DNA from: Candidatus Nomurabacteria bacterium
GTDB lineage: Bacteria > Patescibacteriota > Minisyncoccia > Phycocordibacterales > UBA918
DNA length: 64,000 bases
Assembly (NCBI GenBank): GCA_020631995.1
Contig: JACKGJ010000002.1
Span: forward strand, 26,773 to 90,772
Direction: 5' to 3'
Shown: in pieces, positions 446 through 37,598 of the stretch
Layout of the letters: every line of letters starts with the position of its first letter
How positions within the stretch are numbered: position 1 is the first letter of the stretch
The notes under the pieces: model-generated
Seen by the model: only the letters and a program-made list of their open reading frames with translations
Databases searched by the model: none
Told to the model about the DNA's origin: nothing
Made by a program: the position numbers and the translations under genes

Positions 446-628
446 TTTTGTTTTTGTAAGTCTAATAAAAAGAATAAAGGCCCGCCCCAGATAGGGACGG
501 ACCTCCAACACGATCATATTAACCTATAATTACTCAGATTAAGTTGATGGGTGTGGACAGGTATTTTGAAGTGTACTGAGTTTTTCTTATATACAGGTCA
601 GCTAATATGTGTTAATAATACTGCCACT

Positions 629-1597
629 ATGTTTGTAGATGAAATAACTATAAAAGCTAAGGCTGGCGACGGTGGCGACGGTGTCGCTCGTTGGAGACAG
701 GAAAAATTTAAGCCACACGGTGGCCCAGCTGGAGGTAATGGTGGAAGAGGAGGAAGCGTCTATGTACGTGCTGTTCGTGATTTGTCTCTACTCTCTAAGT
801 ACACTGGATCTAAGGTATTTAAGGCTAAGGATGGCGAACAGGGACGTAGTCTTAGTCAACATGGTCACGCCTCAGAGGACCTCTATATAGACGTCCCCGT
901 CGGGTCTCGTGTCACTGACCTTGGTAGAGAACGTACTGTGGAATTAGTGGAAGAGGGACAAACCGAGAAGATATTAGAGGGTGGTCGTGGGGGACTTGGA
1001 AATGAATATTTTAAGTCATCAGTCAATCGGACTCCGATGCAAACGACTCTTGGCAAAAAGGGAGAAGAGGGAGATTTCCTAATTGAGCTTGCTCTCGTGG
1101 TGGATGTTGGACTGATTGGTAAGCCAAATGCTGGAAAGTCTACATTACTTAATGCAATGACTAACGCTCGTTCAGCAATAGGTGACTATCCTTTCACCAC
1201 ATTAGAACCACACCTAGGAGATATGTACGGATTTGTCTTAGCAGATATTCCGGGGCTTATTGAGGGTGCTTCTGAAGGAAAAGGTCTGGGTCATAAATTT
1301 TTAAAGCATATTTCTAAGACGAAAATGCTCCTACATCTGGTTTCTTTAGAGGAGGAAGACCCAAAGGAAGCGTATTATACAATTTTGAAAGAGCTATCTG
1401 CCTATGATAAAACTGTAGCTGATAAAGAAACTTGGATTATATTTACTAAAAAAGACCTTGTTTCTCAACATAAAATAGACGAGGTACTAGAGAGTATTGA
1501 CACACCTGAAAATCGTGTGTTTGTAATATCAACTTTTGACTCAGAAAGTGTCAAATTGCTACAAGATTCACTCACTAAAAATCTTCGAGACAAATAA
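629..1597 (+). CDS. obg: GTPase Obg/CgtA (short form, no C-terminal extension)
   Basis: Lies in track ORF 551-1597. The conserved Obg N-terminus MFVDEITIKAKAGDGGDG...GGNGGRGG begins at ATG 629. GTPase motifs present: GKPNAGKST (G1), DIPG (G3), TKKD (G4). Confidence 0.9.
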   Translation: MFVDEITIKAKAGDGGDGVARWRQEKFKPHGGPAGGNGGRGGSVYVRAVRDLSLLSKYTGSKVFKAKDGEQGRSLSQHGHASEDLYIDVPVGSRVTDLGRERTVELVEEGQTEKILEGGRGGLGNEYFKSSVNRTPMQTTLGKKGEEGDFLIELALVVDVGLIGKPNAGKSTLLNAMTNARSAIGDYPFTTLEPHLGDMYGFVLADIPGLIEGASEGKGLGHKFLKHISKTKMLLHLVSLEEEDPKEAYYTILKELSAYDKTVADKETWIIFTKKDLVSQHKIDEVLESIDTPENRVFVISTFDSESVKLLQDSLTKNLRDK

Positions 1598-1651
1598 AAA
1601 CACAAAGACCCTTGTGTTCAGAAGTGCCAAAAGGTACTATAAGTGTCAATT

Positions 1652-3097
1652 ATGAGCACTTACAAACCAACAATTGGAATCGAGGTCCACGCCGAATTGA
1701 ACACAAAAAGTAAAATGTTCTGTTCGTGCAAGAACGATCCACATTCAAGTCAACCCAACACTAATATATGTGCAGTGTGTTTGGCTCATCCGGGAACGTT
1801 GCCACGTGTTAATTCAGAGGCTATTAAAAAAGTTTTAATTTTAGGTAAAGCAATTAATGGAGAGATTGCTGACTTTAGCGAATTCGACAGAAAACAGTAT
1901 TTTTATCCAGATATACCAAAAGCTTATCAGCTCAGTCAGTACGCATATCCTTTTGTTAAGGGAGGGAAGTTGGCAGGAGTAGAAATAACGAGGGTCCATC
2001 TAGAGGAAGATACGGCCCGAAGCGCACATACTAATGCAAATGATACTGAGCTTAATGCAAGTGGACATAGTGCAGTAGATTTCAACAGGGCAGGAGTACC
2101 ACTTATGGAGTTGGTTACAGAGCCAGTAATTCATGATGCGAACACTGCCTCTGATTTTGTTAAAGAACTACAACTCTTGCTTCGTACCCTAGGGATATCC
2201 GAGGCAAATATGGAGAAGGGTGAGATGAGAGTGGAGGCTAACATATCAATTAGTGCCACAGATCAGCTCGGAACCAAGGTAGAAGTAAAAAACCTTAATT
2301 CTTTCAAAGCTATGGCTCAGGCGATTGATTTTGAGATATCTCGTCAAGCCGAGATGTTGGACAAAAATATGCCTATAAAGCAGGAAACTCGCGGCTGGGA
2401 TGAAAATAAGTCTCGTACATTTTCACAAAGATCTAAGGAAAAGGCAGACGAATATCGTTATTTTCCTGACCCTGATATACCGAAATTCAAAATTTCTGAG
2501 ATTTCTTCATTTGGTCCAGAGAGTTTATCCAGCGCTATCCGAGATACGCCTGAGAATATAAGGAATAAGTACCGAGATATCGGTTTGACGGAAATACAGA
2601 CAGAAACTTTACTTCTGAATCCTGCACTGAGGAGCTTCTTTGAAATAGGTTTTGCTGATATACAAAGTGAAGTAAAAGGTGAAGAAGCAAGAATGGCTGC
2701 AAACTACCTAACCTCAGACGTATTAGGTCTACTGTCTACAAAAGACGAGACTTCGTTGAGCACAGAAGCCGTAGCAGGCTTCGTAAAGCTAATTGTGATG
2801 CTTCAGAAAGGGGAGATTGGCTCAAGAGTGGCTAAAGACCTACTTCCTCAGGTGCTTTTTGATCTAAAGGACCCAGAAATAATCGCAAAAGAGCAAGGTT
2901 TATTGCAATTGTCTTCTTCAGATGACCTGAAAGCCGTAATAGACAATGTTATTGAAAACAATCCGAAGGTTGTGGATGATTATAAAGCTGGAAAGGAGGC
3001 CTCTGTGCAGTATTTGGTTGGCCAGGCTATGAAAGAAACAAAGGGTTCAGCTAATCCGGCTGTCTTGCTTACCCTCTTTAAAGAAGCTTTGAAGTAA
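1652..3097 (+). CDS. gatB: Asp/Glu-tRNA(Asn/Gln) amidotransferase subunit B
   Basis: PTIGIEVHAELNTKSKMFCSCKN, CAVCLAHPGTLP, and a C-terminal GatB/YqeY domain (YLVGQAMKETKGSANP). ATG 1652 is preferred; GTG 1643 is the track alternative. Confidence 0.9.
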   Translation: MSTYKPTIGIEVHAELNTKSKMFCSCKNDPHSSQPNTNICAVCLAHPGTLPRVNSEAIKKVLILGKAINGEIADFSEFDRKQYFYPDIPKAYQLSQYAYPFVKGGKLAGVEITRVHLEEDTARSAHTNANDTELNASGHSAVDFNRAGVPLMELVTEPVIHDANTASDFVKELQLLLRTLGISEANMEKGEMRVEANISISATDQLGTKVEVKNLNSFKAMAQAIDFEISRQAEMLDKNMPIKQETRGWDENKSRTFSQRSKEKADEYRYFPDPDIPKFKISEISSFGPESLSSAIRDTPENIRNKYRDIGLTEIQTETLLLNPALRSFFEIGFADIQSEVKGEEARMAANYLTSDVLGLLSTKDETSLSTEAVAGFVKLIVMLQKGEIGSRVAKDLLPQVLFDLKDPEIIAKEQGLLQLSSSDDLKAVIDNVIENNPKVVDDYKAGKEASVQYLVGQAMKETKGSANPAVLLTLFKEALK

Positions 3098-3167
3098 GGT
3101 TTAGTTATACACAGTTAGCGGTAGTACAACGGACTACACTTGGTCCTTAATGTTATATAATTGGGCT

Positions 3168-3914
3168 ATGGAAGAAATCTCGGTTAACGGAGAAAACTAC
3201 GTAAAAGCTAGTGTATTAGCCAAGAATTTTGGCTACACCCCAGATTATATCGGACAACTCTGTCGATCCGAGCAAGTTAAGTGCACCCTGGTTGGCCGTA
3301 GTTGGTATGTTAATGAGGACTCACTCCGTGAACACAGGAAGGGTCGCTACCGAAGTAGCTCTGCCAAATCTAAGGAGCATTTGCGTAAGGCTGTAGTTAA
3401 TCAGTCATCCACAATACCTCAGTCAAAATCTTCATCTTCGTTGAAGTACGAAACAGATGAGAGGGAACTTTTTCCAGTATTAAGCAAAGCTGAAGAAAGA
3501 CATATCGATGATTCCACTGAGGATAGACTAGTATCAAATGTGGCTATAAATAAGCCTATATCGATAGCATCAGTACAAAACGAGGTTAGTACCACAGTAT
3601 CAGGGAATACCTTGGCAATACGTCGTCCTGCGCCCGTTTTACGTACTATCCCAGCCCTGCGATCCACCAAGAGCCCTATAAGAGCTAAACAGACTCCCGT
3701 ATCAAGCAAAAGTGTGTCTGTGACGAGTCGAGTGTCTACAGTGGGTACGTTCGCATTATTCTTAGGACTACTGTTAGTGGAATCAGTGCTACTGTTTGGA
3801 GTCTTGGGCTTAGAAAAGCGTCTTGTCTCTGCAGACAGTAATCAGGCTATGGTTTTGTATGGATTTGATGCAGAAAAGGTCATAGATACAGTAAGACAAA
3901 CATTTCAAAAATAA
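3168..3914 (+). CDS. membrane-tethered protein with N-terminal excisionase/MerR-like HTH and C-terminal TM helix
   Basis: Track ORF 3150-3914. HTH-like text: YVKASVLAKNFGYTPDYIGQLCRSEQVKCTLVGRSWYVNEDSL. An S/T/P-rich linker follows, then TM VGTFALFLGLLLVESVLLFGVLGL. A perfect TATAAT at 3156-3161 lies 6 nt before ATG 3168, so 3168 (MEEISVNG...) is preferred over ATG 3150. The N-terminal module is paralogous to that of the downstream giant ORF. Confidence 0.7.
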   Translation: MEEISVNGENYVKASVLAKNFGYTPDYIGQLCRSEQVKCTLVGRSWYVNEDSLREHRKGRYRSSSAKSKEHLRKAVVNQSSTIPQSKSSSSLKYETDERELFPVLSKAEERHIDDSTEDRLVSNVAINKPISIASVQNEVSTTVSGNTLAIRRPAPVLRTIPALRSTKSPIRAKQTPVSSKSVSVTSRVSTVGTFALFLGLLLVESVLLFGVLGLEKRLVSADSNQAMVLYGFDAEKVIDTVRQTFQK

Positions 3915-3935
3915 AATTATAAAAGTATAAAAGAT

Positions 3936-3959
3936 ATCCCCACATTGGGGATTTTTTTT
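3936..3959 (+). terminator. intrinsic terminator
   Basis: ATCCCC-acatt-GGGGAT hairpin followed by T8. Confidence 0.8.
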
Positions 3960-3993
3960 ATAAATTTATTCTGACATTACTATACAATTACTA

Positions 3994-6900
3994 GTGATGT
4001 CAGATAGTACAGAGCCTTCAGGCGTAGCCGCTTTGAAATCTAAAAAATTTCTTTCCGTCAAAGAGGCGGCTTCTGTTTCTTCTTATACTACTGCCCACAT
4101 AACTAGACTCGCTCAGAAGGGATTAGTCGAGGCTAAACGTGATGGTCGTCAATGGTTGATTGACCCTATTTCTCTCCAAAAATTCGTACTGGAAACAGAA
4201 GAAAAAAAGAAAGTCAGAAAGGAACAATTACGAAAGGAACGAGTGGAGGAATTACATTCTTCTAACGTTGGACAATCTTTAGACGATTCCGAGGAGAGTT
4301 TTTCTATTTTTGATTTTCAAACAGCTGTTATATCTACAGCTTTCACAGTATGTGTTGCTTTACTGTTTTCCTTAGGTGGCGCTTATGGTCAGGATGAATC
4401 AGTGGTTGCTGGTAGTACAGTAGTGTCAGGGGTAGAGAAAATGTCTAATGATTTTAAAGATAGAGTATTTCCTCGCACACGTGATCTGACAGCGACTACA
4501 CTCTTGTCTGCTCCGATTGCTAATTACTCAGGAAAAGTATTGGGATGGTTGTGGTGTGACTTTAAATTACTTTGGTACAAAAACGATAGTTGTGGTGCTC
4601 CACCTATCGAGTATGCCATTGTTCCTAGTGTAAATAATGAGGACTCTAAGGTTGAGACCAAAAATGAAAATGATGTAATTGTGTACAACACTTACATCAC
4701 TAATCCTATAGATAGAGAAGTTGTAGAGCGAGAAATTGTTCGCGAAATTTTCGTTCAGGGAGGTGAGCTCTCCTCTTTTGTCGCATATGTAACTCGCACT
4801 GAATACAATAATCAGGTCGACGCCATAATGCGCTCCATCGAAAATATCGATACTAGTAATAGTGGCGGCGGCGGAGGTGGTACTAGCAATGTCTCTTCTC
4901 TAGAGGATTTGTCAGACGTTGCTTCAATGACTGAGGCTGTTGGTAATTTGTTAGTTTGGACCGGTTCTTCTTGGTCCAACATCGCTACCTCCTCCTTGGG
5001 AATTGTGGGCACTGGTGCTGTCGACTCAGTCAACGGTCAAATCGGCGTAGTAGTACTAGACACTGGAGACATTTCAGAAAACGGTAATCTATACTTCACT
5101 GATGCACGTGCTCGCTCCACTTTATCCTCTACGGCTACTGGTCTTTCATACACTACTTCAACTGGTGTATTTAGTTTGACCAGTGGTTATGTCATCCCAT
5201 TCTCAGCTTCAACTACGCAGTGGGCTAACACTACCAACCTAGTTAACGCATCAAGTTCATCTTGGACTACTGCCTTCAATACCATCAACGCTTCTTCAAC
5301 CTTCTGGGACACTGCATACAGTTGGGGAGATCACAGTCTCGCAGGATACTTAAGCAACATTACTGGTGAATCAGTAGAAAGTCTTTCTGACGTTGCTTCA
5401 ATGACTCAAGCGACTGGTGACCTTCTGTATTGGACCGGTTCTGCTTGGAGTAACATTGCCACTTCTTCGTTGGGAATTTCCGGAGGGGGTGCAGTAGATT
5501 CTGTAAACGGTCAAACTGGCGTAGTGGTACTAGATACTGGAGACATTACAGAAAACGGTAATCTATACTTCACTAACGCTCGAGCTGATGCTCGTATTGC
5601 AGCTGGTACTTCCACTATCCGCAATATGCTCTCCGGCACATCCTCAATCGTATACAACGCTTCAACTGGTGAAATCTCATTCAACAATCCTGGATACATC
5701 ACCGGTACTGCTTGGGGAGATATTACTGGCACACTCTCTAATCAAACAGACCTCCAATTAGCTCTAGACGCTAAACTATCTACCACTACCGCAGCCAGTA
5801 CATACTACCTGGCTTCAAACCCAGCTGGATATACCACTAACACTGGTACTGTTACCTCTGTTGGCCTCACTCTACCAACTGGACTATCTGTGACTGGTTC
5901 ACCAATCACTACTTCAGGTGCATTGGCTGTTACTCTCACTAGTGGTTATGTTATTCCGCTTTCAGCTTCAACTACCGAGTGGTCAACCGCTTATGGTTGG
6001 GGAGATCACAGTCTTGCTGGTTATCTAACCTCAATCACTGGACAATCACTTGAAGACCTTAGTGATGTCGCTTCAATGACTCAAACATCTGGTGACCTTC
6101 TTTCTTGGAACGGTTCAAGCTGGACTAATGTTGCAACCTCATCCCTCGGCTTTGTTGCCACTGAATCCGATCCAATCTTCACTGCCTCAACTGCCTTCGG
6201 TATTGATAACACTGACGTAACTAACTGGAATACCGCTTACGCTTCAACCACCGCCCTCACTCCTTCATACATCCGCAACCTATTCTCTAACTCAGCTACC
6301 GGCCTCACATACAATTCATCTACCGGAGCTACTTCACTAACCGCTGGATACAGTATTCCACTCACAGCTTCAACTACTGCTTGGAACAACACTACCAACC
6401 TAGTTAACGCATCAAGTTCATCTTGGACTACTGCCTTCAATACCATCAACGCATCTTCAACCTTCTGGGACACTGCATACAGTTGGGGGAATCACGGTAT
6501 TGTTGGTTACCTAACCACTGTTGATATTAGTGATAATACTAACTTAGCTGGTGACACTGAGATTGTCCTCACTGGAGACACTCTATCAATCGCTTCATCT
6601 ATCACTCGTGATGCTGAAATAGATACAGAGTCTGAACTAGAGGCCTTCCTCACGGACGTCACTAACATCTTCACTAACAATGATGGTGCACTTAATGACG
6701 ATGACCTCTCAGATAACACCACCACTGACCTAGCAGAAGGCACTAACCAATACTTCACCACCTCACGGGCTCGCTCTGCTCTCTCTGCTGGTGCCGGCAT
6801 TACCTACGCTACCTCTACCGGTATTATTGCCTTGAATGCCACCGGCGACTGGACTGGCACCTTTGACGGTCAAGAAGGTACATACTACCTATCACGTGCT

Positions 6901-9900
6901 AACCACACCGGTACACAACTAGCATCAACTATCTCTGACTTCGCTACCGCAGCTGATGCTCGTATTGCAGCTGGTACTTCCACCATCCGCAATATGCTCT
7001 CTGCTGGCACAGGACTTTCATACAACTCTGGCACTGGACAGTTCACTAACACCGGCGTGCTTTCAATCGGAGGATTGACTGGGGCAATTGCTACCTCATC
7101 TCTCCACGTTGCTACTTCCACATACGCTTTCACTGCTGGTACTTCATCAGTTGCTCTGGCACTTGATGGATTTAACTCAAACGATTATCTAACCCTCGCT
7201 GCTTGGAACGCCACTACCACTGACGCACTTGATGAAGGTTCATCTAATCTATACTTCACTAACGCTCGAGCTCGTGAGTCTCTTTCATCATCAGCTACTG
7301 GTCTTTCATACGCTACTTCAACTGGTGTATTTAGTTTGACCAGTGGTTATGTCATCCCACTCTCAGCCTCTACCACTGCTTGGACAAACTTCTATAACAC
7401 TCCATCAACTCGTATCACTGCTGGTACTAACATCGACTGGACAGGGAATACACTAAACATAGACACTGACCTTGCTAACTACAACAACACCAGCACTGCT
7501 TTCATTGACTTAACAGACCTCTCTTCACTAGCCACCGGCCTCACATACAACAACACCAACGGCCAGTTCTCATTAACTAGTGGATACAACATCCCACTCA
7601 CAGCCAGCACAACCAACTGGAACAACACATACAACACCGTCACAGCAAACAGTGCTTCTTGGGACGCAGCCGCTGCCTCAACCACCGCCCTCACTCCTTC
7701 ATACATCCGCAACCTATTCTCTAACTCAGCTACCGGCCTCACATACAATTCATCTACCGGAGCTACTTCACTAACCGCTGGATACAGTATTCCACTCACA
7801 GCTTCAACTACTGAGTGGTCTAACAAAGTCTCAAGTCAATGGACTACATCAGGTTCAAACATCTACTACAACGCTGGGAAAGTGGGGATAGGGACGACTA
7901 CTCCAACTGAGTCATTACATGTATATGGTTCTGGTAACCAACGCATGATGGTTGAAACTAGTGATGATGGGTCAGCTCAATTTCGTCTTAAAAATTCCAA
8001 TACAGAATGGCACTTTGAAGCATGGAATAACGCTTTTAATTTTGTTGAAACTTATGCAGGCAACAGACTCACTATCTTAGAAGGTGGCAATGTTGGTATT
8101 GGAACAACGACTCCAGGTAGTCTCTTGACGGTCGCCGGAACTGCTAACATTACCGGCGCCACCACACTCTCATCAACCCTTAACGTCACCGGCAACACCA
8201 CTCTTGCTAACGCCTCTTCAACTAACTTCACTGTTTCCGGTAACAGCTACCTCGGTGTAGTCACCAGTGGTACTTGGAACGGCACCGCCATCGACATCTC
8301 TTCATACACCAACCTTGGCGTCACTGCTACTGGCCTTGAACTCTCAGGCGACGCTATTGTTCTATCAAGTGGATACAACATCCCACTCACAGCCAGCACA
8401 ACCAACTGGAACAACACATACAACACCGTCACAGCAAACAGTGCTTCTTGGGACGCAGCCGCTGCCTCAACCACCGCCCTCACTCCTTCATACATCCGCA
8501 ACCTATTCTCTAACTCAGCTACCGGCCTCACATACAATTCATCTACCGGAGCTACTTCACTAACTGCTGGATACAGTATTCCACTCACAGCTTCAACTAC
8601 TGCTTGGAACAACACTACCAACCTAGTTAACGCATCAAGTTCATCTTGGACTACTGCCTTCAATACCATCAACGCATCTTCAACCTTCTGGGACACTGCA
8701 TACAGTTGGGGGAATCACGGTATTGTTGGTTACCTAACCACTGTTGATATTAGTGACAACACCAACCTCTCCGTCACCGCCACTGGCCTCGAACTCTCAG
8801 GCGACGCTATTGTTCTATCAAGTGGATACACCATCCCACTCTCAGCCTCTACCACCGCTTGGACAAACTTCTATAACACTCCATCAACTCGTATCACTGC
8901 TGGTACTGGTCTTTCTTGGACAGGGAATACTTTGAACGCTTCTTCGTCTGCTGACATTAACTACTGGACACTTTCTGGTAGCAACGTCTACCGTACAACA
9001 GGGAATGTCGGTATTGGAACCTCTACTCCAAACAGCGCGCTGACTGTAGTGGGTAACACTTATCTATCAGGTAACTTAACAGCAAGTGGCACTCTAGCAG
9101 TAACCGGGACAGCTACCTCTACCTTTGCCGGTGGTATTGAAATTACTGGCGATATTATTCCATCAGCTGATGATGTTTATTCGTTAGGTTCATTGTCACG
9201 AGTGTGGCGCGACGTATACATTGGACCTGGTTCTTTGTATGTAAACGGAAAGAAGGTGATTCAAGATATTTCTGACACGATTACTATCTCAACTGACCCT
9301 GACCAAAACTTGATGTCACAAACTTCTGGAGTTGGTGTTATTACAATGCGCGCCACTGGTTCTGGAAATGCTAACGTTAATACTGGTTCTGGAAACATCA
9401 ACATCACCTCTACTTCCGGAAACGTTAATATCGGCACTTCTGGTTCTGGTCAGTTAAACTTCGGTACTGTAACTACTGGTGTTTGGCACGGCACCGACAT
9501 CGACGTCTCTGATTACACCAACCTCTCCGTCACCGCTACTGGCCTTGAACTCTCAGGCGACGCTATTGTTCTATCAAGTGGATACACCATCCCACTCTCA
9601 GCCTCTACCACTGCTTGGACAAACTTCTATAACACTCCATCAACTCGTATCACTGCTGGTACTAACATCGACTGGACAGGGAATACACTAAACATAGACA
9701 CTGACCTTGCTAACTACAACAACACCAGCACTGCTTTCATTGACTTAACAGACCTCTCTTCACTAGCCACCGGCCTCACATACAACAACACCAATGGCCA
9801 GTTCTCATTAACTAGTGGATACAACATCCCACTCACAGCCAGCACAACCAACTGGAACAACACATACAACACCGTCACAGCAAACAGTGCTTCTTGGGAC

Positions 9901-12900
9901 GCAGCCGCTGCCTCAACCACCGCCCTCACTCCTTCATACATCCGCAACCTATTCTCTAACTCAGCTACCGGCCTCACATACAATTCATCTACCGGAGCTA
10001 CTTCACTAACCGCTGGATACAGTATTCCACTCACAGCTTCAACTACTGCTTGGAACAACACTACCAACCTAGTTAACGCATCAAGTTCATCTTGGACTAC
10101 TGCCTTCAATACCATCAACGCATCTTCAACCTTCTGGGACACTGCATACAGTTGGGGGAATCACGGTATTGTTGGTTACCTAACCAACATTACTGGTGAA
10201 TCACTCGAAAACCTAAGTGATGTCGCTTCAATGACCCAAGCGACTGGTGACCTTCTTTCTTGGAACGGTGCAAACTGGACTAATGTTGCAACAAGCTCAC
10301 TTGGCTTTAATGACCACTCTTCAGTCACTCTCGCAGGTTCATACGATTACCTTACTCTCTCTGGTCAACAAATTACCTTAAATCAAATAGATCTTACCAC
10401 CGACGTCACTGGTGTCCTTCCTAACGCTAACGTGGCTGATGATATTACCCTTACCAACATTACCCAAATCACTAACCGCGCTATCAGCGACACTACCGGT
10501 ACTTTAACTGTTGCTCGTGGTGGTACAGGTGCCACCTCTCTCACCGGACTTCTGCTAGGAAATGGCACCAGTGCATTTACTGCTACCACTACATTATCTC
10601 AAGGCTACGGAGGAACAGGTATTGGCTCATACACTGCAGGAGATTTACTTTACGCAAACTCTAATGGCGCGCTAGAAAAACTGCCAATCGGTTCATCAGG
10701 ACAAGTATTGAAAGTCTCAGCTGGCTTGCCGTCATGGGGGGTAGATCAAACAGTGGGAGAGGGTGGAGGCGGAGGAGTCTGGGCAACCTCTACTGAATTT
10801 ATTTATCCTCAAAACACATCTAATAGAGTTGTGATCGGTAATAGTGCTACTTCAACTAATAATGCAATATTTGAAGTGACTGGTATCTCATACTTCTCAA
10901 ACAAAGTCGGCATCGGTGACACTAGCCCAACCTCGCTCTTCACTGTAGGTGCTGGAGATGCTTTCCAAGTCACGTCTCTTGGTGTTATTGCTTCTGGAAC
11001 TTGGAACGGCACCGATATCGACATCAGCGACTACACCAACCTCTCCGTCACCGCCACTGGCCTTGAACTCTCAGGCGACGCTATTGTTCTATCAAGTGGA
11101 TACAACATCCCACTCACAGCCAGCACAACCAACTGGAACAACACATACAACACCGTCACAGCAAACAGTGCTTCTTGGGACGCAGCCGCTGCCTCAACCA
11201 CCGCCCTCACTCCTTCATACATCCGCAACCTATTCTCTAACTCAGCTACCGGCCTCACATACAATTCATCTACCGGAGCTACTTCACTAACTGCTGGATA
11301 CAGTATTCCACTCACAGCTTCAACTACTGCTTGGAACAACACTACCAACCTAGTTAACGCATCAAGTTCATCTTGGACTACTGCCTTCAATACCATCAAC
11401 GCATCTTCAACCTTCTGGGACACTGCATACAGTTGGGGGAATCACGGTATTGTTGGTTACCTAACCACTGTTGATATTAGTGATAATACTAACTTAGCTG
11501 GTGACACTGAGATTGTCCTCACTGGAGACACTCTATCAATCGCTTCATCTATCACTCGTGATGCTGAAATAGATACAGAGTCTGAACTAGAGGCCTTCCT
11601 CACGGACGTCACTAACATCTTCACTAACAATGATGGTGCACTTAATGACGATGACCTCTCAGATAACACCACCACTGACCTAGCAGAAGGCACTAACCAA
11701 TACTTCACCACCTCACGGGCTCGCTCTGCTCTCTCTGCTGGTGCCGGCATTACCTACGCTACCTCTACCGGTATTATTGCCTTGAATGCCACCGGCGACT
11801 GGACTGGCACCTTTGACGGTCAAGAAGGTACATACTACCTATCACGTGCTAACCACACCGGTACACAACTAGCATCAACTATCTCTGACTTCGCTACCGC
11901 AGCTGATGCTCGTATTGCAGCTGGTACTTCCACCATCCGCAATATGCTCTCTGCTGGCACAGGACTTTCATACAACTCTGGCACTGGACAGTTCACTAAC
12001 ACCGGCGTGCTTTCAATCGGAGGATTGACTGGGGCAATTGCTACCTCATCTCTCCACGTTGCTACTTCCACATACGCTTTCACTGCTGGTACTTCATCAG
12101 TTGCTCTGGCACTTGATGGATTTAACTCAAACGATTATCTAACCCTCGCTGCTTGGAACGCCACTACCACTGACGCACTTGATGAAGGTTCATCTAATCT
12201 ATACTTCACTAACGCTCGAGCTCGTGAGTCTCTTTCATCATCAGCTACTGGTCTTTCATACGCTACTTCAACTGGTGTATTTAGTTTGACCAGTGGTTAT
12301 GTCATCCCACTCTCAGCCTCTACCACTGCTTGGACAAACTTCTATAACACTCCATCAACTCGTATCACTGCTGGTACTAACATCGACTGGACAGGGAATA
12401 CACTAAACATAGACACTGACCTTGCTAACTACAACAACACCAGCACTGCTTTCATTGACTTAACAGACCTCTCTTCACTAGCCACCGGCCTCACATACAA
12501 CAACACCAACGGCCAGTTCTCATTAACTAGTGGATACAACATCCCACTCACAGCCAGCACAACCAACTGGAACAACACATACAACACCGTCACAGCAAAC
12601 AGTGCTTCTTGGGACGCAGCCGCTGCCTCAACCACCGCCCTCACTCCTTCATACATCCGCAACCTATTCTCTAACTCAGCTACCGGCCTCACATACAATT
12701 CATCTACCGGAGCTACTTCACTAACTGCTGGATACAGTATTCCACTCACAGCTTCAACTACTGCTTGGAACAACACTACCAACCTAGTTAACGCATCAAG
12801 TTCATCTTGGACTACTGCCTTCAATACCATCAACGCATCTTCAACCTTCTGGGACACTGCATACAGTTGGGGGAATCACGGTATTGTTGGTTACCTAACC

Positions 12901-15900
12901 ACTGTTGATATTAGTGATAATACTAACTTAGCTGGTGACACTGAGATTGTCCTCACTGGAGACACTCTATCAATCGCTTCATCTATCACTCGTGATGCTG
13001 AAATAGATACAGAGTCTGAACTAGAGGCCTTCCTCACGGACGTCACTAACATCTTCACTAACAATGATGGTGCACTTAATGACGATGACCTCTCAGATAA
13101 CACCACCACTGACCTAGCAGAAGGCACTAACCAATACTTCACCACCTCACGGGCTCGCTCTGCTCTCTCTGCTGGTGCCGGCATTACCTACGCTACCTCT
13201 ACCGGTATTATTGCCTTGAATGCCACCGGCGACTGGACTGGCACCTTTGACGGTCAAGAAGGTACATACTACCTATCACGTGCTAACCACACCGGTACAC
13301 AACTAGCATCAACTATCTCTGACTTCGCTACCGCAGCTGATGCTCGTATTGCAGCTGGTACTTCCACCATCCGCAATATGCTCTCTGCTGGCACAGGACT
13401 TTCATACAACTCTGGCACTGGACAGTTCACTAACACCGGCGTGCTTTCAATCGGAGGATTGACTGGGGCAATTGCTACCTCATCTCTCCACGTTGCTACT
13501 TCCACATACGCTTTCACTGCTGGTACTTCATCAGTTGCTCTGGCACTTGATGGATTTAACTCAAACGATTATCTAACCCTCGCTGCTTGGAACGCCACTA
13601 CCACTGACGCACTTGATGAAGGTTCATCTAATCTATACTTCACTAACGCTCGAGCTCGTGAGTCTCTTTCATCATCAGCTACTGGTCTTTCATACGCTAC
13701 TTCAACTGGTGTATTTAGTTTGACCAGTGGTTATGTCATCCCACTCTCAGCCTCTACCACCGCTTGGACAAACTTCTATAACACTCCATCAACTCGTATC
13801 ACTGCTGGTACTAACATCGACTGGACAGGGAATACACTAAACATAGACACTGACCTTGCTAACTACAACAACACCAACACTGCTTTCATTGACTTAACAG
13901 ACCTCTCTTCACTAGCCACCGGCCTCACATACAACAACACCAACGGCCAGTTCTCATTAACTAGTGGATACAACATCCCACTCACAGCCAGCACAACCAA
14001 CTGGAACAACACATACAACACCGTCACAGCAAACAGTGCTTCTTGGGACGCAGCCGCTGCCTCAACCACCGCCCTCACTCCTTCATACATCCGCAACCTA
14101 TTCTCTAACTCAGCTACCGGCCTCACATACAATTCATCTACCGGAGCTACTTCACTAACTGCTGGATACAGTATTCCACTCACAGCTTCAACTACTGCTT
14201 GGAACAACACTACCAACCTAGTTAACGCTTCTTCAACTTTCTGGAACACAGCATATAGCTGGGGGAATCACGCTACACAAAACTACTTTGACCTCGACAA
14301 CGCACCACTCACTGTGGCAAATGGTGGTACTGGTACCACAACCCTGACAGGACTTCTGCTAGGAAATGGCACCGGTGCATTTACCGCTACCACGACTCTT
14401 TCTTCTTCATATATAGAAGATGCTTATGTTCGCAACACTGGGGATTCTATTTCCGGCACCTTCACTCTCTCCGGCTCTGCTGCCAACATCGCCCTCGGCA
14501 CTAACTACATCAGCTACGCTGGTGGTGATACTGCCTTCAACATCACTTCTGGTGATGTGGTACGCATTGGAGCTTCTGGTACTGCCAACAGTACATCTAA
14601 CTCCGGTGACCTCTACGTCGAAGACATTCTTGAGGTTGATGGGGCTAGTTACTTAGCTACTGTGTCCACTACCGGCAACGTCGGTATTGGTACCTCTGTT
14701 GGTGCTCAACGATTGACTGTATCGGCTGACGCCACAAGTGACGCTGGCCTCTTCGTCACTGGTGGAGCACTCTCAACTATTGGTACTGCTAACGCTAACA
14801 GTGGTCAGATCTTGGTTGGTAATAGTACATACAATGCTTCAATCGGTTATGACTACACCACCTACGATACTTTTATCGATAACTATTCATCAGGTTCATT
14901 TGATGGAGAAATAGTCTTCCGAACTAGCCCGTCAACCACACTCGTAGCCGGCCTCACCCTCACCAACGCTGGTGCCGTTAAAGTTGGTAGTGGCGGTACA
15001 ACCAACTACGCCACTGGCAACGGTGACCTCTATGTCCAAGATGCTCTTGAAGTTGATGGTACTAGTTACTTAACAGGAGTTACCAATGCCGGCACTTTCA
15101 CCAACACCGGCACCTTCACTCTCTCCGGCACCGCCGCCAACATCGCCCTCGGCGCTAACTACATTAGCTACGCTGGTGGTGATACTGCCTTCAACATCAC
15201 TTCTGGTGATGTGGTACGGATTGGAGCTGGTACCGTCAACAGTGCATCTAACTCCGGTGACCTTTATGTCCAAGACATCCTTGAGGTGGATGGTGCTAGT
15301 TACTTAGACACCGTGTCCACTACTGGCAACGTCGGTATTGGTACCTCTGTTGGTGCTCAACGATTGACTGTATCGGCTGACGCCACCAGTGACGCTGGTC
15401 TCTTTGTGACCGGTGGAGCACTCTCAACTATTGGTACTGCTAATGCGAACAGTGGTCAGATCTTGGTTGGTAATAGTACATACAATGCTTCAATCGGTTA
15501 TGACTACACCACCTACGATACTTTTATTGATAACTATTCATCAGGTTCATTTGATGGAGAAATAGTCTTCCGAACTAGCCCGTCAACCACACTCGTAGCC
15601 GGCCTCACCCTCACCAACGCTGGTGCAGTTAAAGTTGGTAGTGGCGGTTCAGCCAACTACGCCACTGGCAACGGTGACCTCTATGTCCAAGATGCACTTG
15701 AAGTTGATGGTACCAGTTACTTAACAGGAGTTACCAATGCCGGCACTTTCACCAACACCGGCACCTTCACTCTCTCCGGCACCGCCGCCAACATCGCCCT
15801 CGGCGCTAACTACATTAGCTACGCTGGTGGTGATACTGCCTTCAACATCACTTCTGGTGATGTGGTACGGATTGGAGCTGGTACCGTCAACAGTGCATCT

Positions 15901-18900
15901 AACTCCGGTGACCTTTATGTCCAAGACATCCTTGAGGTGGATGGTGCTAGTTACTTAGACACCGTGTCCACTACTGGCAACGTCGGTATTGGTACCTCTG
16001 TTGGTGCTCAACGATTGACTGTATCGGCTGACGCCACCAGTGACGCTGGTCTCTTTGTGACCGGTGGAGCACTCTCAACTATTGGTACTGCTAATGCGAA
16101 CAGTGGTCAGATCTTAATTGGTAATGGTTCATACAACACCTCTCTCGCATTTGACTACAACACCTTTGCCACTTACCTCGACAATTCATACACCACTTCT
16201 GGCGGTGATATTATCTTGCGAACTAGTCCTGCTGGTGTTCGCACAGCCGGCCTCACCCTCACCAACGCTGGTGCAGTTAAAGTTGGTAGTGGCGGTTCAG
16301 CCAACTACGCCACTGGCAACGGTGACCTCTATGTCCAAGATGCACTTGAAGTTGATGGTACCAGTTACTTAACAGGAGTTACCAATGCCGGCACTTTCAC
16401 CAACACCGGCACCTTCACTCTCTCCGGCACCGCCGCCAACATCGCCCTCGGCGCTAACTACATTAGCTACGCTGGTGGTGATACTGCCTTCAACATCACT
16501 TCTGGTGATGTGGTACGGATTGGAGCTGGTACCGTCAACAGTGCATCTAACTCCGGTGACCTTTATGTCCAAGACATCCTTGAGGTGGATGGTGCTAGTT
16601 ACTTAGACACCGTGTCCACTACTGGCAACGTCGGTATTGGTACCTCTGTTGGTGCTCAACGATTGACTGTATCGGCTGACGCCACCAGTGACGCTGGTCT
16701 CTTTGTGACCGGTGGAGCACTCTCAACTATTGGTACTGCTAATGCGAACAGTGGTCAGATCTTGGTTGGTAATAGTACATACAATGCTTCAATCGGTTAT
16801 GACTACACCACCTACGATACTTTTATTGATAACTATTCATCAGGTTCATTTGATGGAGAAATAGTCTTCCGAACTAGCCCGTCAACCACACTCGTAGCCG
16901 GCCTCACCCTCACCAACGCTGGTGCAGTTAAAGTTGGTAGTGGCGGTTCAGCCAACTACGCCACTGGCAACGGTGACCTCTATGTCCAAGATGCACTTGA
17001 AGTTGATGGTACCAGTTACTTAACAGGAGTTACCAATGCCGGCACTTTCACCAACACCGGCACCTTCACTCTCTCCGGCACCGCCGCCAACATCGCCCTC
17101 GGCGCTAACTACATTAGCTACGCTGGTGGTGATACTGCCTTCAACATCACTTCTGGTGATGTGGTACGGATTGGAGCTGGTACCGTCAACAGTGCATCTA
17201 ACTCCGGTGACCTTTATGTCCAAGACATCCTTGAGGTGGATGGTGCTAGTTACTTAGACACCGTGTCCACTACTGGCAACGTCGGTATTGGTACCTCTGT
17301 TGGTGCTCAACGATTGACTGTATCGGCTGACGCCACCAGTGACGCTGGTCTCTTTGTGACCGGTGGAGCACTCTCAACTATTGGTACTGCTAATGCGAAC
17401 AGTGGTCAGATCTTAATTGGTAATGGTTCATACAACACCTCTCTCGCATTTGACTACAACACCTTTGCCACTTACCTCGACAATTCATACACCACTTCTG
17501 GCGGTGATATTATCTTGCGAACTAGTCCTGCTGGTGTTCGCACAGCCGGCCTCACCCTCACCAACGCTGGTGCAGTTAAAGTTGGTAGTGGCGGTTCAGC
17601 CAACTACGCCACTGGCAACGGTGACCTCTATGTCCAAGATGCACTTGAAGTTGATGGTACCAGTTACTTAACAGGAGTTACCAATGCCGGCACTTTCACC
17701 AACACCGGCACCTTCACTCTCTCCGGCACCGCCGCCAACATCGCCCTCGGCGCTAACTACATTAGCTACGCTGGTGGTGATACTGCCTTCAACATCACTT
17801 CTGGTGATGTGGTACGGATTGGAGCTGGTACCGTCAACAGTGCATCTAACTCCGGTGACCTTTATGTCCAAGACATCCTTGAGGTGGATGGTGCTAGTTA
17901 CTTAGACACCGTGTCCACTACTGGCAACGTCGGTATTGGTACCTCTGTTGGTGCTCAACGATTGACTGTATCGGCTGACGCCACCAGTGACGCTGGTCTC
18001 TTTGTGACCGGTGGAGCACTCTCAACTATTGGTACTGCTAATGCGAACAGTGGTCAGATCTTGGTTGGTAATAGTACATACAATGCTTCAATCGGTTATG
18101 ACTACACCACCTACGATACTTTTATTGATAACTATTCATCAGGTTCATTTGATGGAGAAATAGTCTTCCGAACTAGCCCGTCAACCACACTCGTAGCCGG
18201 CCTCACCCTCACCAACGCTGGTGCCGTTAAAGTTGGTAGTGGCGGTACAACCAACTACGCCACTGGCAACGGTGACCTCTATGTCCAAGATGCTCTTGAA
18301 GTTGATGGTACTAGTTACTTAACAGGAGTTACCAATGCCGGCACTTTCACCAACACCGGCACCTTCACTCTCTCCGGCTCTGCTGCCAACATCGCCCTCG
18401 GCACTAACTACATCAGCTACGCTGGTGGTGATACTGCCTTCAACATCACTTCTGGTGATGTGGTACGCATTGGAGCTTCTGGTACTGCCAACAGTACATC
18501 TAACTCCGGTGACCTCTACGTCGAAGACATTCTTGAGGTTGATGGGGCTAGTTACTTAACAGGAATTACCAACACTGGTACCCTTAGCAATTCTGGCACC
18601 TTAACCCTCTCCGGTACCGCCGCTAACATTGCGCTTGGTTCTAACTACCTCTCTGGAGATGGAGACGATGAAGGTATTTATGTAAGTGCAACAGGCAACG
18701 TCGGCATCGGCTCCTCGACTCCATCATCTAAACTCACTGTCCAAGGTGACACTTGGATTGGAGGCAATGTAACTGCCACTGGTACACTAGCCGTCACTGG
18801 TGCTACAACACTATCTTCAACACTTGGTGTTACAGGTCACGCAACTCTCGCTACAGCATCATCTACCAACATCACTGTTTCTGGTAACTCATATTTAGGT

Positions 18901-21900: not shown

Positions 21901-24900
21901 TTCACCAAACTCACTTGGTCTACTGAGCTTTTTGACACCAATAACAATTTCAATACCAGCACTAGTCGTTTTACACCAACCATAGCTGGTAAATACATTA
22001 TCAATGCTACAGCTTTGTTTACAGGATTAGGCTTTGACCAAGTGGAAATAATTACAAGCATCTATAAAAATGGAACACTTTTGTACGACAGTCCCGTCGT
22101 TAGAGGAAGTGGTGCTAACCCTCAAGGAGGTTCCGTATCGGGTATAGTTGATATGAACGGTACTACTGATTATATTGAAATTTATGTCTGGCAAAATTCA
22201 GGTTCCGCCAGGACCATTTCTGGTGCCACTACCAGCACTCATTTCTCCGGCGCCCTCATCGCTCCATCTAACGGTCTCGCTGGCGGTTGGTCTAACGACG
22301 AAACTCAGTCATATCTCGCTGACTATACAGACCTCGTCGCTATCGGTACCACTACTGCTGCTGCAAAACTAGACATCTGGGGCAGTGCTGGCTCAACAGA
22401 TATCCTTGGTATCTCTTCAAGTACCGGCACCCGCCTCCTTACCGTCTCTTCGGCCGGCAACGTTGGTATCGGTACCTCTACACCTGGTTCACTCCTCACT
22501 GTTACTGGCACCAGCACTATGGGTACCATCCTTCCTGGTGGTGCATACACCGGTAATATGTCTGCCTTTAACCTTGGAGCCTCTGCAAGCAGATGGAATG
22601 AAGTCTGGGCTGGTACATATAATGTTGGTACTTCTACTTGGTCACTCTCTGCTACTGGCCCTGACCGCTTTGGTATCTTTAGCTCAGCTAGTGCCGGTGG
22701 TACTGAAGTATTTTCTATACTACAAGGAGGGAACATTGGTATCGGTACCACTACACCGTCTGACAAACTCACCGTAGCTGGTGGTGCTACCTTTGACCAC
22801 TTCACCACTTCATCTACGACCGCCACTTCTACCATTGCTGGTAATCTTGAGGTCACTGGAAATATATCATTCACTGGTTCACTGCTCGATAGTATTGGTT
22901 CAGCTGGCTCGGCTGGTATGGTACTTCAAAGTACTGGTAGTGGTGTGCAGTGGGTAGCTACCTCATCACTTGGTATCTCTGCTGGAGGTTCGGCTGACGA
23001 TGGAGTCCTTTCACACACCTTTACCGCCTCAAGTACTTGGAACGCTATTACGTCACTTAGCGAAACATCAACTGTGCAGGTGGTACTTGATGCTTCAAAT
23101 GTAACTAACGGACAACTTATCCTCACTGTCGATGGGTCTAATGTCCTTACCACTAACGCTGGGGAAAAGAATTACCGTGTAGTGAGTGCTGATAGTTCGG
23201 TGAGTATCTCAACGAGTGAGGTTGGTTTCAGTTTTGCCACCACCACTTTTGTGGATTCGTTTAGTGTTGCATCAGATGAAAGTTCACCAAATGATGTCGT
23301 TTTCAGCAATGATGGGACAAAGATGTTTGTGTCAGGCAATGAATTTAGTGAGATTATAGAGTATCATCTCGGCACTGCCTTCGACGTCTCTACCGCCGTC
23401 TACGACAGTGGATTTTATACCGGATTTCAGGATAATTTGCCTCGTGGCTTCGCCTTCAACACTGATGGTACTAAAATGTTTGTGGTGGGTGGTGAAGGAG
23501 ATGATGTTAACGAATACACCCTCAGCACAGGCTTTGACGTCTCCACTGCCTCCTTCGTCGATTCCTTCAGTGTATCGGCACAGGAGACTGACCCATACGG
23601 CCTCGCTTTCAGTAGCGACGGTACCAAGATGTTTGTGGTTGGTAGTGTTGGGGACGATGTTAACGAATACACCCTCAGCACAGGCTTTGACGTCTCCACC
23701 GCCTCCTTCGTCGATTCCTTCAGCATCTCGGCGCAGGACACTGCTCCAACCGGCCTTGCCTTCAACACCAACGGTACCAAGATGTTTGTGATGGGCTGGA
23801 CTGGTGACGATGTCAACATATACCACCTCGGTACTGCCTTCGATGTCTCCACCGCCGTATACAACAGTGTCTTCAGTGTAGCGGCTCAGGAGACCTCACC
23901 AACTGGTATTGCCTTCAATACCAACGGTACTAAGATGTTTGTGGTAGGTCAGGCTGGTGACGACGTGAACGAATATACTCTTGGAGCTGCTTTTACATTG
24001 AATCCGACTGCTTTCGTTGACTCCTTCAGTGTATCGACACAAGAGTCTGCACCAAACGACGTTGCCTTCTCTACCGACGGCACCAAGATGTTTGTGATGG
24101 GCTGGACTGGTGACGATGTCAACGAATATAATCTAGGTACTGCCTTCGACGTCTCCACCGCCGTGTACGACAGTGTATTTTATGTCGGATCTCAGGAGGC
24201 TACACCATCTGGCCTCGCTTTCTCCACCGACGGTACCAAGATGTTTGTAACCGGATTTAGTGGTGTGGATGTCAATGAATACCACCTCGGTACCGCCTGG
24301 GACGTCTCCACTGCCGTTTATGATAGTATATTTTACGTTGGGTCGCAGGAGAGTACACCACGTGACGTTGCTTTCTCTACCGACGGCCTGAAGATGTTTA
24401 TATCAGGCGCTACAGGAATAGATATTACTGAATATAATCTCGGTGTTGCCTTCGATGTCTCCACCGCAGTCTACGATAGTGCATTCAGTGTATCGGCACA
24501 GGACACTGCACCATTTGGTCTCACTTTTTCACCAGACGGCCTCAAGATGTTTGTGGTGGGTGATACGGGAAATGATATTAATGAATATACCCTCGGCACC
24601 GCCTTCGATGTCTCCACCGCTTCATACAGTACTGTCTTCAGTGTAGCGGCTCAGGACACCACACCTCGTGGTATCGCTTTCAACACCAACGGTACTAAGA
24701 TGTTTGTGGTAGGTCAGGCTGGTGTCGACGTTAACGAATACACACTTGCTGGTCCGTTCTCCGGCACCGCCCATGCATACATCTCATATGTCGCAGAAAA
24801 CACCGGTGGAGCCGACCTGGCAGAAATGTACGCCACAGCAGAAAGTGACCTCGAAGCCGGTGACGTAGTAGCACTAGACACAGAACGTCCTGGCTACGTT

Positions 24901-27915: not shown

Positions 27916-28194
27916 ATGGCTAAGACAACTATCAACATCAAAGCTGACAAATATATTAAGGAAGAGGCGCAAAAAACGGCTCGTGAGCTTGGTATGCCAC
28001 TGTCTACTGTAATCAATGGGTATTTAGCTCAGTTTGTCAGAACAAAAGAAGTTTATTTCTATCTTGAAGGGGAGCTCAAGCCTATGGCAAAGCGTCGCCT
28101 TGACCGACTACAAAAGGAGGCTCTGGAAGGCAAGAACCTTACTGGGTCCTTTGATAGTGCGCGGAAGGCAATTGACCATTTACATTCACAATGA
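27916..28194 (+). CDS. type II antitoxin, RelB/DinJ family
   Basis: MAKTTINIKADKYIKEEAQKTARELGMPLSTVINGYLAQFV shows a ribbon-helix-helix pattern. ATG 27916 lies within track ORF 27856-28194. It overlaps the toxin gene by 4 nt (ATGA). Confidence 0.8.
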   Translation: MAKTTINIKADKYIKEEAQKTARELGMPLSTVINGYLAQFVRTKEVYFYLEGELKPMAKRRLDRLQKEALEGKNLTGSFDSARKAIDHLHSQ

Positions 28195-28451
28195 ATATAG
28201 GTTTTCACCGCAACTTTATTAAACAGTATAAGAGAGTGCCAAAGAGTACACGTTTTCGGGTTGATGAGCGTTTGGAACTTTTTGAGCTCAATGCGCTACA
28301 TCCACTACTTAATACCCACCCCTTAACGGGAAATCGGACAGGGCAGTGGAGTATAAATATCACTGGAGACTGGAGAGCTGTTTTTGTTTATCAAGATAGA
28401 GAAACTGTCATTTTTATTGATTTAGATACACACAGTAATCTGTATAAGTAG
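28191..28451 (+). CDS. type II toxin, RelE/YafQ family mRNA interferase
   Basis: 86 aa. ...LNTHPLTGNRTGQWSINITGDWRAVFVYQDRETVIFIDLDTHSNLY. The H.L.G..G.....I..DWR.I/VF pattern is typical of YafQ/RelE. Confidence 0.8.
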   Translation: MNIGFHRNFIKQYKRVPKSTRFRVDERLELFELNALHPLLNTHPLTGNRTGQWSINITGDWRAVFVYQDRETVIFIDLDTHSNLYK

Positions 28452-37103: not shown

Positions 37104-37120
37104 CGAAATTATGATTAGAC

Positions 37121-37155
37121 AAAACAAAAACTCCCAAAAGGGAGTTTTTGTTTTG
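37121..37155. terminator. bidirectional intrinsic terminator
   Basis: CAAAAACTCCC-aaaa-GGGAGTTTTTG flanked by an A-run and a T-run. It serves the recombinase (+) and the convergent small ORF (-). Confidence 0.8.
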
Positions 37156-37169
37156 AATTAAATTTCTAA

Positions 37170-37283
37170 CTAGCCTTCACAACTGACACACGTTGATTCA
37201 CCGGCAAAATGAACGCGAGGTTTAGCTGCTGCGGCACCTTCTACAGCTGGTAGTTCGAAGTTGAATTCATTTGTGTTTTGCAT
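37170..37283 (-). CDS. 37-aa peptide ORF candidate (Cys/Ser/Thr-containing C-terminus)
   Basis: MQNTNEFNFELPAVEGAAAAKPRVHFAGESTCVSCEG. It ends 15 nt before the bidirectional terminator. No convincing SD or -35 was seen. Below the track cutoff. Confidence 0.25.
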   Translation of the reverse strand: MQNTNEFNFELPAVEGAAAAKPRVHFAGESTCVSCEG

Positions 37284-37387
37284 GACTTATATTTTAACAT
37301 TTTGAGCCAGGACCGCGATGTGTATAACTAGTCTACATTATTACGGCTATAGATAAAGATTTATTTGACCCCGCTCCCCCACCAAAC

Positions 37388-37415: not shown

Positions 37416-37421
37416 AATGGA

Positions 37422-37537: not shown

Positions 37538-37598
37538 AGTACATATCTCTTTCTAAAAAAACTGCAAATATAAAAATATTATTGTTACAATTGCTTGA

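Follow-up and report, generated by a model that had tools for sequence, protein, structure and literature searches.

An in-frame array of A/B modules, apparently expanded recently, in a giant gene for a predicted tail-fibre-like surface protein of a Patescibacteria bacterium

The DNA described here is a stretch of 64,000 nucleotides, referred to below as the window, from Candidatus Nomurabacteria bacterium (GenBank assembly GCA_020631995.1, contig JACKGJ010000002.1, positions 26,773 to 90,772 of the forward strand), which belongs to the Candidate Phyla Radiation (CPR)/Patescibacteria. It contains a giant open reading frame (ORF), predicted to encode a tail-fibre-like surface protein, inside which lies a tandem array of 6.3 copies of a module of about 217 residues (216-218), amounting to 4,101 bp of coding sequence. 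A preliminary description, made from the letters alone, had placed the starts of seven units; these coordinates proved exact, and the in-frame lengths of the units are 654, 651, 648, 651, 648, 651 and 198 bp. The features of the array and of the gene that contains it are as follows, the column number referring to a MAFFT alignment of the units.

3997 to 25878, + strand: giant ORF, 7,293 amino acids from its ATG, predicted tail-fibre-like surface protein, with the array in frame inside it.
14458 to 15111, + strand: unit 1, 654 bp; H1 head, A body (C at column 420), T1 tail.
15112 to 15762, + strand: unit 2, 651 bp; H2 head, A body, T2 tail.
15763 to 16410, + strand: unit 3, 648 bp; H2 head, B body, T2 tail.
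16411 to 17061, + strand: unit 4, 651 bp; 100% identical to unit 2.
17062 to 17709, + strand: unit 5, 648 bp; 100% identical to unit 3.
17710 to 18360, + strand: unit 6, 651 bp; H2 head, A body, T1 tail.
18361 to 18558, + strand: partial unit 7, 198 bp; H1 head only, the same as the head of unit 1.
15064 to 18224, + strand: tract perfectly periodic at 1,299 bp (2.43 periods), the putative footprint of the latest duplication of an A+B pair.
18559 to 18648, + strand: degenerate relic of a tail/head junction (TGITNTGTLSNSGTLTLSGTAANIALGSNYLSG...) directly after the array; 18481-18648 is 76% identical to 14995-15162.

All seven units stand in the reading frame of the giant ORF, which is intact across 21.9 kb and through every unit junction. 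A GTG at 3994 just precedes the ATG; in the sister-strain contig considered below, the gene call begins at the equivalent ATG.

The variable columns of the alignment fall into three blocks. The H1 heads (units 1 and 7) differ from the H2 heads (units 2-6) by 26 substitutions and a 3-bp indel within columns 19-339, the A bodies (units 1, 2, 4 and 6) from the B bodies (units 3 and 5) by about 50 substitutions and a 3-bp indel within columns 357-488, and the T1 tails (units 1 and 6) from the T2 tails (units 2-5) by 5 substitutions within columns 519-606. The alignment bears out the body order A A B A B A given earlier, as well as the sharing of the unit 1 tail with unit 6, where the change to the outer haplotype falls between columns 420 and 519. 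That units 2-6 are virtually identical to one another, as had also been stated, holds outside the A/B body and fails within it.

An exact-run scan found that 15064-16925 equals 16363-18224 over 1,862 bp, at an offset of 1,299 and with zero mismatches, in agreement with the proposal that the recent amplification unit is a 1,299-bp A+B pair. Within this periodic tract a perfect sequence of 563 bp occurs three times, starting at 15064, 16363 and 17662. A further perfect run of 203 bp (14453-14655 and 18356-18558) joins the first head to the last, where the preliminary description had counted 198 bp. Perfect identity on this kilobase scale is far beyond chance. As a correction to the span of 14458-18558 reported earlier, homology detected by BLAST extends over 14453-18561 and is followed by the degenerate relic up to about 18648. 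Tandem Repeats Finder missed the array because its longest period, 500, is shorter than the unit.

A second allele is carried by the ENA MEGAHIT contig ERZ27333130 k141_393530 (L003), which we reached by look-up of the upstream neighbour of the giant gene. It is 99.6-99.8% identical to the window over 1-6240 and 100% identical over 14059-14457, and its array comprises 2.3 units.

X1: H1 head, body identical to A, third tail type (T3).
X2: H1 head, B-like body (B'), tail that is a T1/T2 mosaic.
X3: third head type; the sequence after it is that found in the window.

The array thus measures 1,503 bp in L003 against 4,101 bp in the window, a difference of 2,598 bp or exactly 2 x 1,299. The strains diverge mainly within the array: identity is 94.3% for unit 1 and X1, 91.2% for unit 3 and X2 and 84.3% for unit 7 and X3, against 99.6-100% in the flanks. 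Several alleles of the H2 and T2 classes recur in new combinations in X1-X3, which points to gene conversion or allelic recombination among repeat variants. X1 and X2 differ from each other at least every ~107 bp, and an assembly graph with k = 141 can therefore resolve them. The contig ends at a repeat that the window carries twice (at 18694 and 19963); since it breaks there, a hidden cycle of identical units would probably also have broken it.

The two alleles and the classes of variants allow parts of the history of the array to be ordered. Synonymous divergence (dS) is 0.26 between H1 and H2, ~1.08 between A and B and 0.40 between B and B', with ratios of non-synonymous to synonymous divergence (dN/dS) of 0.09, 0.30 and 0.14, respectively; across all comparisons of variants dN/dS stays below 1, ranging from 0.09 to 0.36. 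The preliminary description had noted many synonymous differences between unit 1 and units 2-6; most of the codon differences are indeed synonymous (18, against 6 that are non-synonymous; dN/dS 0.09). The variant classes thus appear to be old and under purifying selection, and their present copies are identical. A dS of ~1.08 for A and B and of 0.26 for H1 and H2 greatly exceeds the 0.2-0.4% divergence of the strains, which places both splits before that of the strains; the presence of both A and B-type bodies in the sister strain likewise makes the A/B dimorphism older than the strain split. The amplification, by contrast with its ingredients, is younger than the strain split: at 0.2-0.4% divergence ~4-7 differences are expected in 1,862 bp and none is observed.

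Recent expansion by unequal recombination, as first proposed, is supported by the sister contig, with its 2.3 units and its shortfall of exactly two 1,299-bp pairs. The last step would have been one unequal crossover inside the 563-bp perfect repeat, which would have duplicated the 1,299-bp A+B pair and so turned an array of 4.3 units (units 1, 2, 3, 6 and 7) into the present one; the steps before it have no unique reconstruction. The accompanying proposal of an ancestral array of about 1.3 units is not borne out. A and B-type bodies are both already present in the sister strain, and the class splits predate the strains; removal of the interior haplotype tract leaves no in-register 1.3-unit array; and unequal exchange within H1-A-T1-H1' cannot yield H2 heads or T2 tails. 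For these reasons we discard a 1.3-unit ancestor. The heads at the two ends of the array match each other exactly and are 9% different from all interior heads, which may reflect conversion of the last head by unit 1 or a divergent allele imported by recombination.

The array is not the only young repeat in the gene, and all long repeats of the window lie inside the giant ORF. The second system lies upstream of the array.

6241 to 14228, + strand: second young repeat system, 1,434-bp period, blocks 99.7-99.9% identical.

Within it, 11095-12794 and 12529-14228 are 99.88% identical, and further copies of 6241-7813, with 99.7-99.8% identity, start at 11191 and 12625. L003 joins the equivalent of 6410 straight to 14229 and is thus without 7,818 bp (6411-14228), in frame, keeping one copy of the 170-bp direct repeat that bounds the missing piece (6241-6410, the same as 14059-14228). 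Elsewhere in the gene are the 344-bp repeat pair at 18694 and 19963 and about ten diverged 153-bp repeats at 23.3-24.7 kb. ORFs in alternative frames or antisense within the repeats (16118-16372 and 17417-17671 on the + strand; repeated minus-strand ORFs within 9714-14249) were treated as by-products of the repeats.

The mosaic of head, body and tail variants could in principle reflect programmed variation, the A and B bodies being cassettes of a diversity-generating retroelement or of conversion of the pilin or vls type. Diversity-generating retroelements directed at surface proteins are frequent in CPR genomes, which lends the idea some background. The scanned ORFs of the window include neither a reverse transcriptase nor a silent cassette locus, and all long repeats are confined to the gene. 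The differences between A and B comprise an indel and all types of substitution, so that they are not limited to adenines, and a dS around 1 marks the variants as old. We therefore regard programmed variation as highly improbable.

The protein encoded by the giant ORF has the composition of 16% Thr, 12% Ser, 12% Gly and 10% Ala; it is rich in Asn as well, and Cys is nearly absent. One hydrophobic segment stands out.

4306 to 4386, + strand: hydrophobic segment, predicted N-terminal membrane anchor (residues ~104-130; residues 1-103 predicted to be cytoplasmic).

In a Kyte-Doolittle scan with a 19-residue window, only windows 104-112 exceed 1.6 across the 7,293 residues. This single segment suggests one N-terminal membrane anchor, with the remaining ~7,160 residues predicted to lie outside the cell. 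On the predicted cytoplasmic side of the anchor, residues 19-65 (4051-4191) give a weak excisionase/HTH_17 match (E ~1e-3, below cutoffs), and a helix-turn-helix (HTH)-like segment is not what one would expect at the start of a surface fibre.

The first 1,002 residues match the PHROG tail-fibre family phrog_9729 with E = 4e-19. A Pfam scan of the giant protein returned nothing above threshold, including no Peptidase_S74 anywhere. A search with residues 1-748 gave 183 relatives, many of them from Patescibacteria; Peptidase_S74 is present in several, and others have PF07921, PF07484 or PF05662, which we take to be fibritin C-terminal, phage tail collar and YadA stalk domains, respectively. Whichever start codon is taken, the giant protein has no exact match in the protein collections, and no database match longer than 1,878 residues was returned; with the protein itself missing from these collections, the absence of orthologues is weak evidence.

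Further segments lie downstream of the array. The segment at ~21950-22330 (FSVHKNGTNQGSITSDSF...AGKYIINATALF...IYKNGTLLY) resembles the N-terminus of a Saccharibacteria fibre protein and by eye looks like a jelly roll of the C1q/TNF type. At 23311-24750 the ~ten 153-bp repeats encode 51-residue repeats of the form FVDSFSV..Q...P.G.AFS.DGTKMFV.G..GDDVNEY.LGTAFDVSTA, with 65-78% DNA identity; a weak match of Kelch type indicates that they probably form a distal domain resembling a beta-propeller. There follows, at 24800-25210, a C-terminal domain of ~135 residues (TGGADLAEMYATAESDLEAGDVVALD...) for which Pfam, NCBIfam and the PDB gave no match, and which recurs, with 37% identity (E = 1e-11), in P0006, the relative that the array unit matches best. 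The end of the protein (25480-25875) is acidic, rich in proline and of low complexity (PEPEPEPEPETETETP...APTPAPAPAT), and two Logan contigs break there.

The unit itself begins with the head and a first VRIG...GDLYV(Q/E)DILEVDG motif, continues with GNVGIGTSVGAQRLTV, the A/B insert and AVKVGSGG..NYATGNGDLYVQDALEVDG, and ends in a linker. Each module holds one motif of the capping-loop type (GNVGIGT....L.V), an A or B insert of ~95 residues and two GDLYVxDxLEVDG motifs. In its longer form, GDLYV(Q/E)D(A/I)LEVDG(A/T)SYL, this motif occurs twice in every full unit, as had been noted, and 13 times in total, none of the 13 outside the array. Alignment with distant relatives shows the capping-loop motif to be followed directly by VRIG...GDLYV..LEVDG. 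This adjacency indicates that the A/B body is an insertion into a commoner module of ~75 residues.

The giant protein contains eleven distinct segments of the GNVGIGT..P...L.V type. A profile built from nine GNVGIGT segments, when compared with the PDB, matched fibre proteins of Bdellovibrio: 8OND/Bd2133 with E = 5.9e-15, 8OL4 with 3.9e-8, 8OJN with 1.8e-7 and 8OML with 1.8e-5. The Bdellovibrio mosaic adhesive trimeric (MAT) fibres are trimeric beta-helices with an edge capping loop V-G-G/N-pi-x-x-P-x-x-x-L and fall into S74 and non-S74 subgroups (Caulton et al. 2024, PMC10769870). With a profile from which the array segments had been left out, the array unit pair still reached 27.8 bits, and none of 2,000 shuffles exceeded 4.0 bits, which places the array unit in the same GNVGIGT motif family despite a Gly where the motif has Pro. 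Homology of the motif to trimeric beta-helix fibres makes a beta-helix-like module plausible; the fold claimed here goes no further than a predicted beta-rich module with fibre-type motifs. A search of the PDB with the unit alone gave no match, and in Pfam and NCBIfam no family reached its cutoff for the unit. Sub-threshold matches of the unit to DUF4012 and Herp-Cyclin were rejected, as were the designer 'Cake' propellers that a GDLYV-motif profile retrieved from the PDB, their scores being sums of matches of ~3 bits each.

As a whole, the unit is rare. A search of an indexed set of 5.8 billion proteins returned 5 matches, and a profile search of the same set only 5 short proteins; an exhaustive HMMER scan of 1.84 billion representatives gave 50 matches to the unit at E <= 1e-3, 7 of them at E <= 1e-10. 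The best relative, P0006, reaches 44% identity over part of its length, and 6 of the 50 distant relatives carry Peptidase_S74 at the C-terminal end. Distant loci sharing the motif number one among GTDB representative genomes, in a Saccharibacteria metagenome-assembled genome (MAG; L001, also the source of the fibre protein mentioned above), and six among JGI contigs. Neither IMG/VR nor the GenBank phages (INPHARED) held a relative of the unit, and a literature search for the motif found nothing relevant. One distant fibre relative, P0009 (1,878 amino acids), contains about a dozen near-identical 85-residue GNVGIGT repeats, and its C-terminus is by eye of the S74 type (SDRRLKENIE motif); its repeats indicate that recent amplification of modules is not unique to this giant gene.

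Rather than spacers, the modules could be ligand-binding units whose amplification tunes avidity or specificity, A and B offering alternative binding surfaces. The insert is the most divergent part of the module, where, of 51 codons, 25 differ non-synonymously and 8 synonymously; the array alternates between A and B, and the authors of the work on Periscope Proteins allow that some arrayed domains may also bind ligands (PMC8201768). Against this, dN/dS shows no sign of diversifying selection (0.30 for A and B, 0.14 for B and B'), the conserved motifs are of the fibre-shaft type, and the candidate tip domains, namely the 51-residue repeats and the C-terminal domain that P0006 also has, are distal to the array. 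We consider such a binding role unlikely; it would be compatible with a role as a stalk, the two not being exclusive.

Taking these lines of evidence together, we think it likely that the locus is an in-frame array of 6.3 modules in the extracellular part of an anchored giant fibre, with a copy number that changes by unequal recombination. The long, near-identical repeats would promote unequal homologous recombination, of which the crossover described above would be the latest instance, and gene conversion or allelic recombination would shuffle the head, body and tail variants. Gain or loss of 217-residue modules in frame would then lengthen or shorten the fibre and possibly alter its surface pattern, in the way proposed for Periscope Proteins. 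Judging from the homology of its motif to MAT/S74 fibres, the fibre is probably a trimer, and a longer array would project the distal parts further, that is, the segment that by eye looks C1q-like, the 51-residue repeats and the C-terminal domain. The fibre-type motifs, the distal 51-residue repeats and the C-terminal domain appear compatible with a rod that projects a distal domain. The host cell probably lives attached to other cells.

Several points weigh against the anchored, length-variable fibre. Firstly, the Pro of the capping loop is replaced by Gly in the array units (VGIGTSVGAQRL), and searches of Pfam and the PDB found no counterpart of the GDLYV motif. Secondly, AlphaFold2 models of a single chain had a pLDDT of 39 (499 residues, alignment of 9 rows) and 54.6 (240 residues, 13 rows) and are unusable; surface exposure, trimerisation and any effect of fibre length are predictions. 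Thirdly, the 2.3-unit allele comes from a single short-read (MEGAHIT) contig, while the 6.3 copies and the perfect identity of the interior come from one assembly, in which read polishing could homogenise the interior copies. The contig of a second MAG of the population (GCA_020632025.1, JACKGK010000001.1; L005) ends inside the gene, ~4.6 kb before the stop codon.

These last points raise the question of whether the array is an artefact of assembly or polishing, such that the true number of units differs or the interior units are not identical, their order having arisen from mis-assembly or multi-mapped polishing. Just one assembly spans the array. Every other assembly of the population breaks in or at the giant gene: besides the second MAG, contigs built from short reads end at the borders of the gene or at internal repeats, and two Logan contigs (L002 and L006) start ~25 bp before the stop codon, at the 3' end of the gene. 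For samples of this kind there are pipelines in which Nanopore assemblies are polished with short reads (PMC8012365, for example). An artefact fits poorly with an ORF that stays open over 21.9 kb and all junctions, with unit lengths that alternate exactly between 651 and 648 bp in frame, and with edge-specific haplotypes in units 1, 6 and 7, which are not expected to survive such a process. In addition, L003 independently shows A and B bodies, the H1 head and alleles of T1/T2 type, and the difference in length to that contig is exactly 2 x 1,299 bp. We thus judge an artefact to be quite unlikely.

A more far-reaching version of this reading is advanced tentatively, and we would sooner doubt it than rely on it. 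In this CPR lineage of episymbiont type, the chromosomal and probably trimeric fibre may be a fast-evolving determinant of cell contact, its length approximately doubling (from ~3.4k to 7.3k residues) between strains 0.2-0.4% apart through in-frame amplification of two separate module systems (7.8 and 2.6 kb), with use of a GDLYVxDxLEVDG module family that lacks a Pfam or structural description and has ~50 relatives among 1.84 billion representative proteins.

The giant gene is a chromosomal gene of a CPR/Patescibacteria bacterium and not a phage gene. Proteins encoded in the window match NCBI entries for 'Candidatus Nomurabacteria bacterium' (locus tag H6788_) exactly. It lies between gatB and scpB, with obg, gatB and a 254-aa gene of unknown function upstream, and scpB, a gene for a D-Ala-D-Ala carboxypeptidase (dacA-like), mraY, ftsW, murG, gltX and a gene for an M23 peptidase downstream. 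A 184-residue start variant of ScpB gave no match in look-up, and no tRNA genes were found in the window. Between the carboxypeptidase gene and mraY (~27916-28450, equivalent to 2062-2597 of L002), gene calls on the sister contigs include two small genes, one for a 92-aa product without a Pfam match and one for an 86-aa product with a YafQ_toxin match; they may be a toxin-antitoxin pair. Further downstream, 36069-41441 is island-like, with an integrase gene (36069-37103) and genes for an N6/N4 methyltransferase, a 286-aa protein of unknown function and a D12 methyltransferase, and the GC content dips to 0.35 at 38-40 kb. After this island comes a gene for a 272-aa protein with DnaA_N and Bac_DnaA_C matches and no match to an AAA+ domain.

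That near-identical tandem repeats combined with unequal recombination produce length variation is a well-established principle. What the present locus adds is resolution: such genes are usually lost or collapsed in metagenome assemblies, and here one is resolved in full, alongside a shorter allele of independent origin, showing that kilobases can come or go in frame inside one population. Candidates for the attachment of CPR bacteria to other cells are few, giant repeat-rich surface proteins being among them, and the sequence profile ties one of them to the structurally characterised MAT fibres of Bdellovibrio. A practical warning follows as well, in that short-read assemblies are not reliable for copy number in such genes.

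Among known systems, the array is an ordinary but clean case of a variable-length, Periscope-like repeat stalk in a tail-fibre-like surface protein. Periscope Proteins, among them SasG, Aap, Rib, Sgo_0707, Esp and CdrA, combine high DNA identity of their repeats with intragenic recombination and length variation (Whelan et al. 2021, PNAS, PMC8201768). Their surface anchor would have its counterpart in the predicted N-terminal segment of the giant protein. As in these proteins, its long tandem repeats are near-identical in both DNA and protein, repeat number differs between strains (2.3 and 6.3, from one short-read contig and one spanning assembly), intragenic homologous recombination is proposed, and candidate functional domains are distal to the array. 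It differs from them in that its unit, a composite of 217 residues, bears tail-fibre-type motifs and probably belongs to a trimeric fibre, in that the unit of amplification is a pair of two old variants (A+B), and in that the host is an uncultured CPR bacterium and the predicted anchor an N-terminal transmembrane segment.

With the Bdellovibrio MAT fibres (Bd2133, Bd1334 and Bd3182) the protein shares the GNVGIGT..P...L capping-loop motif with its preceding strand, a mosaic, modular and, by prediction, beta-rich fibre build, and relatives both with and without Peptidase_S74. Unlike in the S74 subgroup of these fibres, no S74 domain was detected in it, and its C-terminal domain belongs to a family without a Pfam entry. 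It is also ~7 times longer and has a predicted transmembrane anchor in place of a signal peptide, and solved structures offer no counterpart of its GDLYVxDxLEVDG motif or A/B insert. The MAT fibres have a conserved, beta-rich N-terminal domain of ~130 residues after their signal peptide; the N-terminus of the giant protein is an HTH-like segment and then the predicted transmembrane segment. Phage tail fibres and tailspikes with an S74 chaperone, such as the K1F endosialidase and T5 pb1, offer a further parallel: the N-terminal part matches phrog_9729, and relatives of that part and of the unit (6 of 50) carry S74. In contrast to those fibres, the gene is chromosomal and lies among housekeeping genes, the unit is without relatives in IMG/VR or GenBank phages, and no S74 domain was found in the protein. 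Finally, the protein resembles the giant surface proteins of West-Roberts et al. (2023, bioRxiv 10.1101/2023.11.21.568195) in being very long, membrane-anchored (here by prediction) and largely extracellular, in having repeats that fragment short-read assemblies and in a proposed role in cell adhesion. It differs from those proteins in phylum, in domains and in length (7.3k against > 30k residues), and its module is not described among them.

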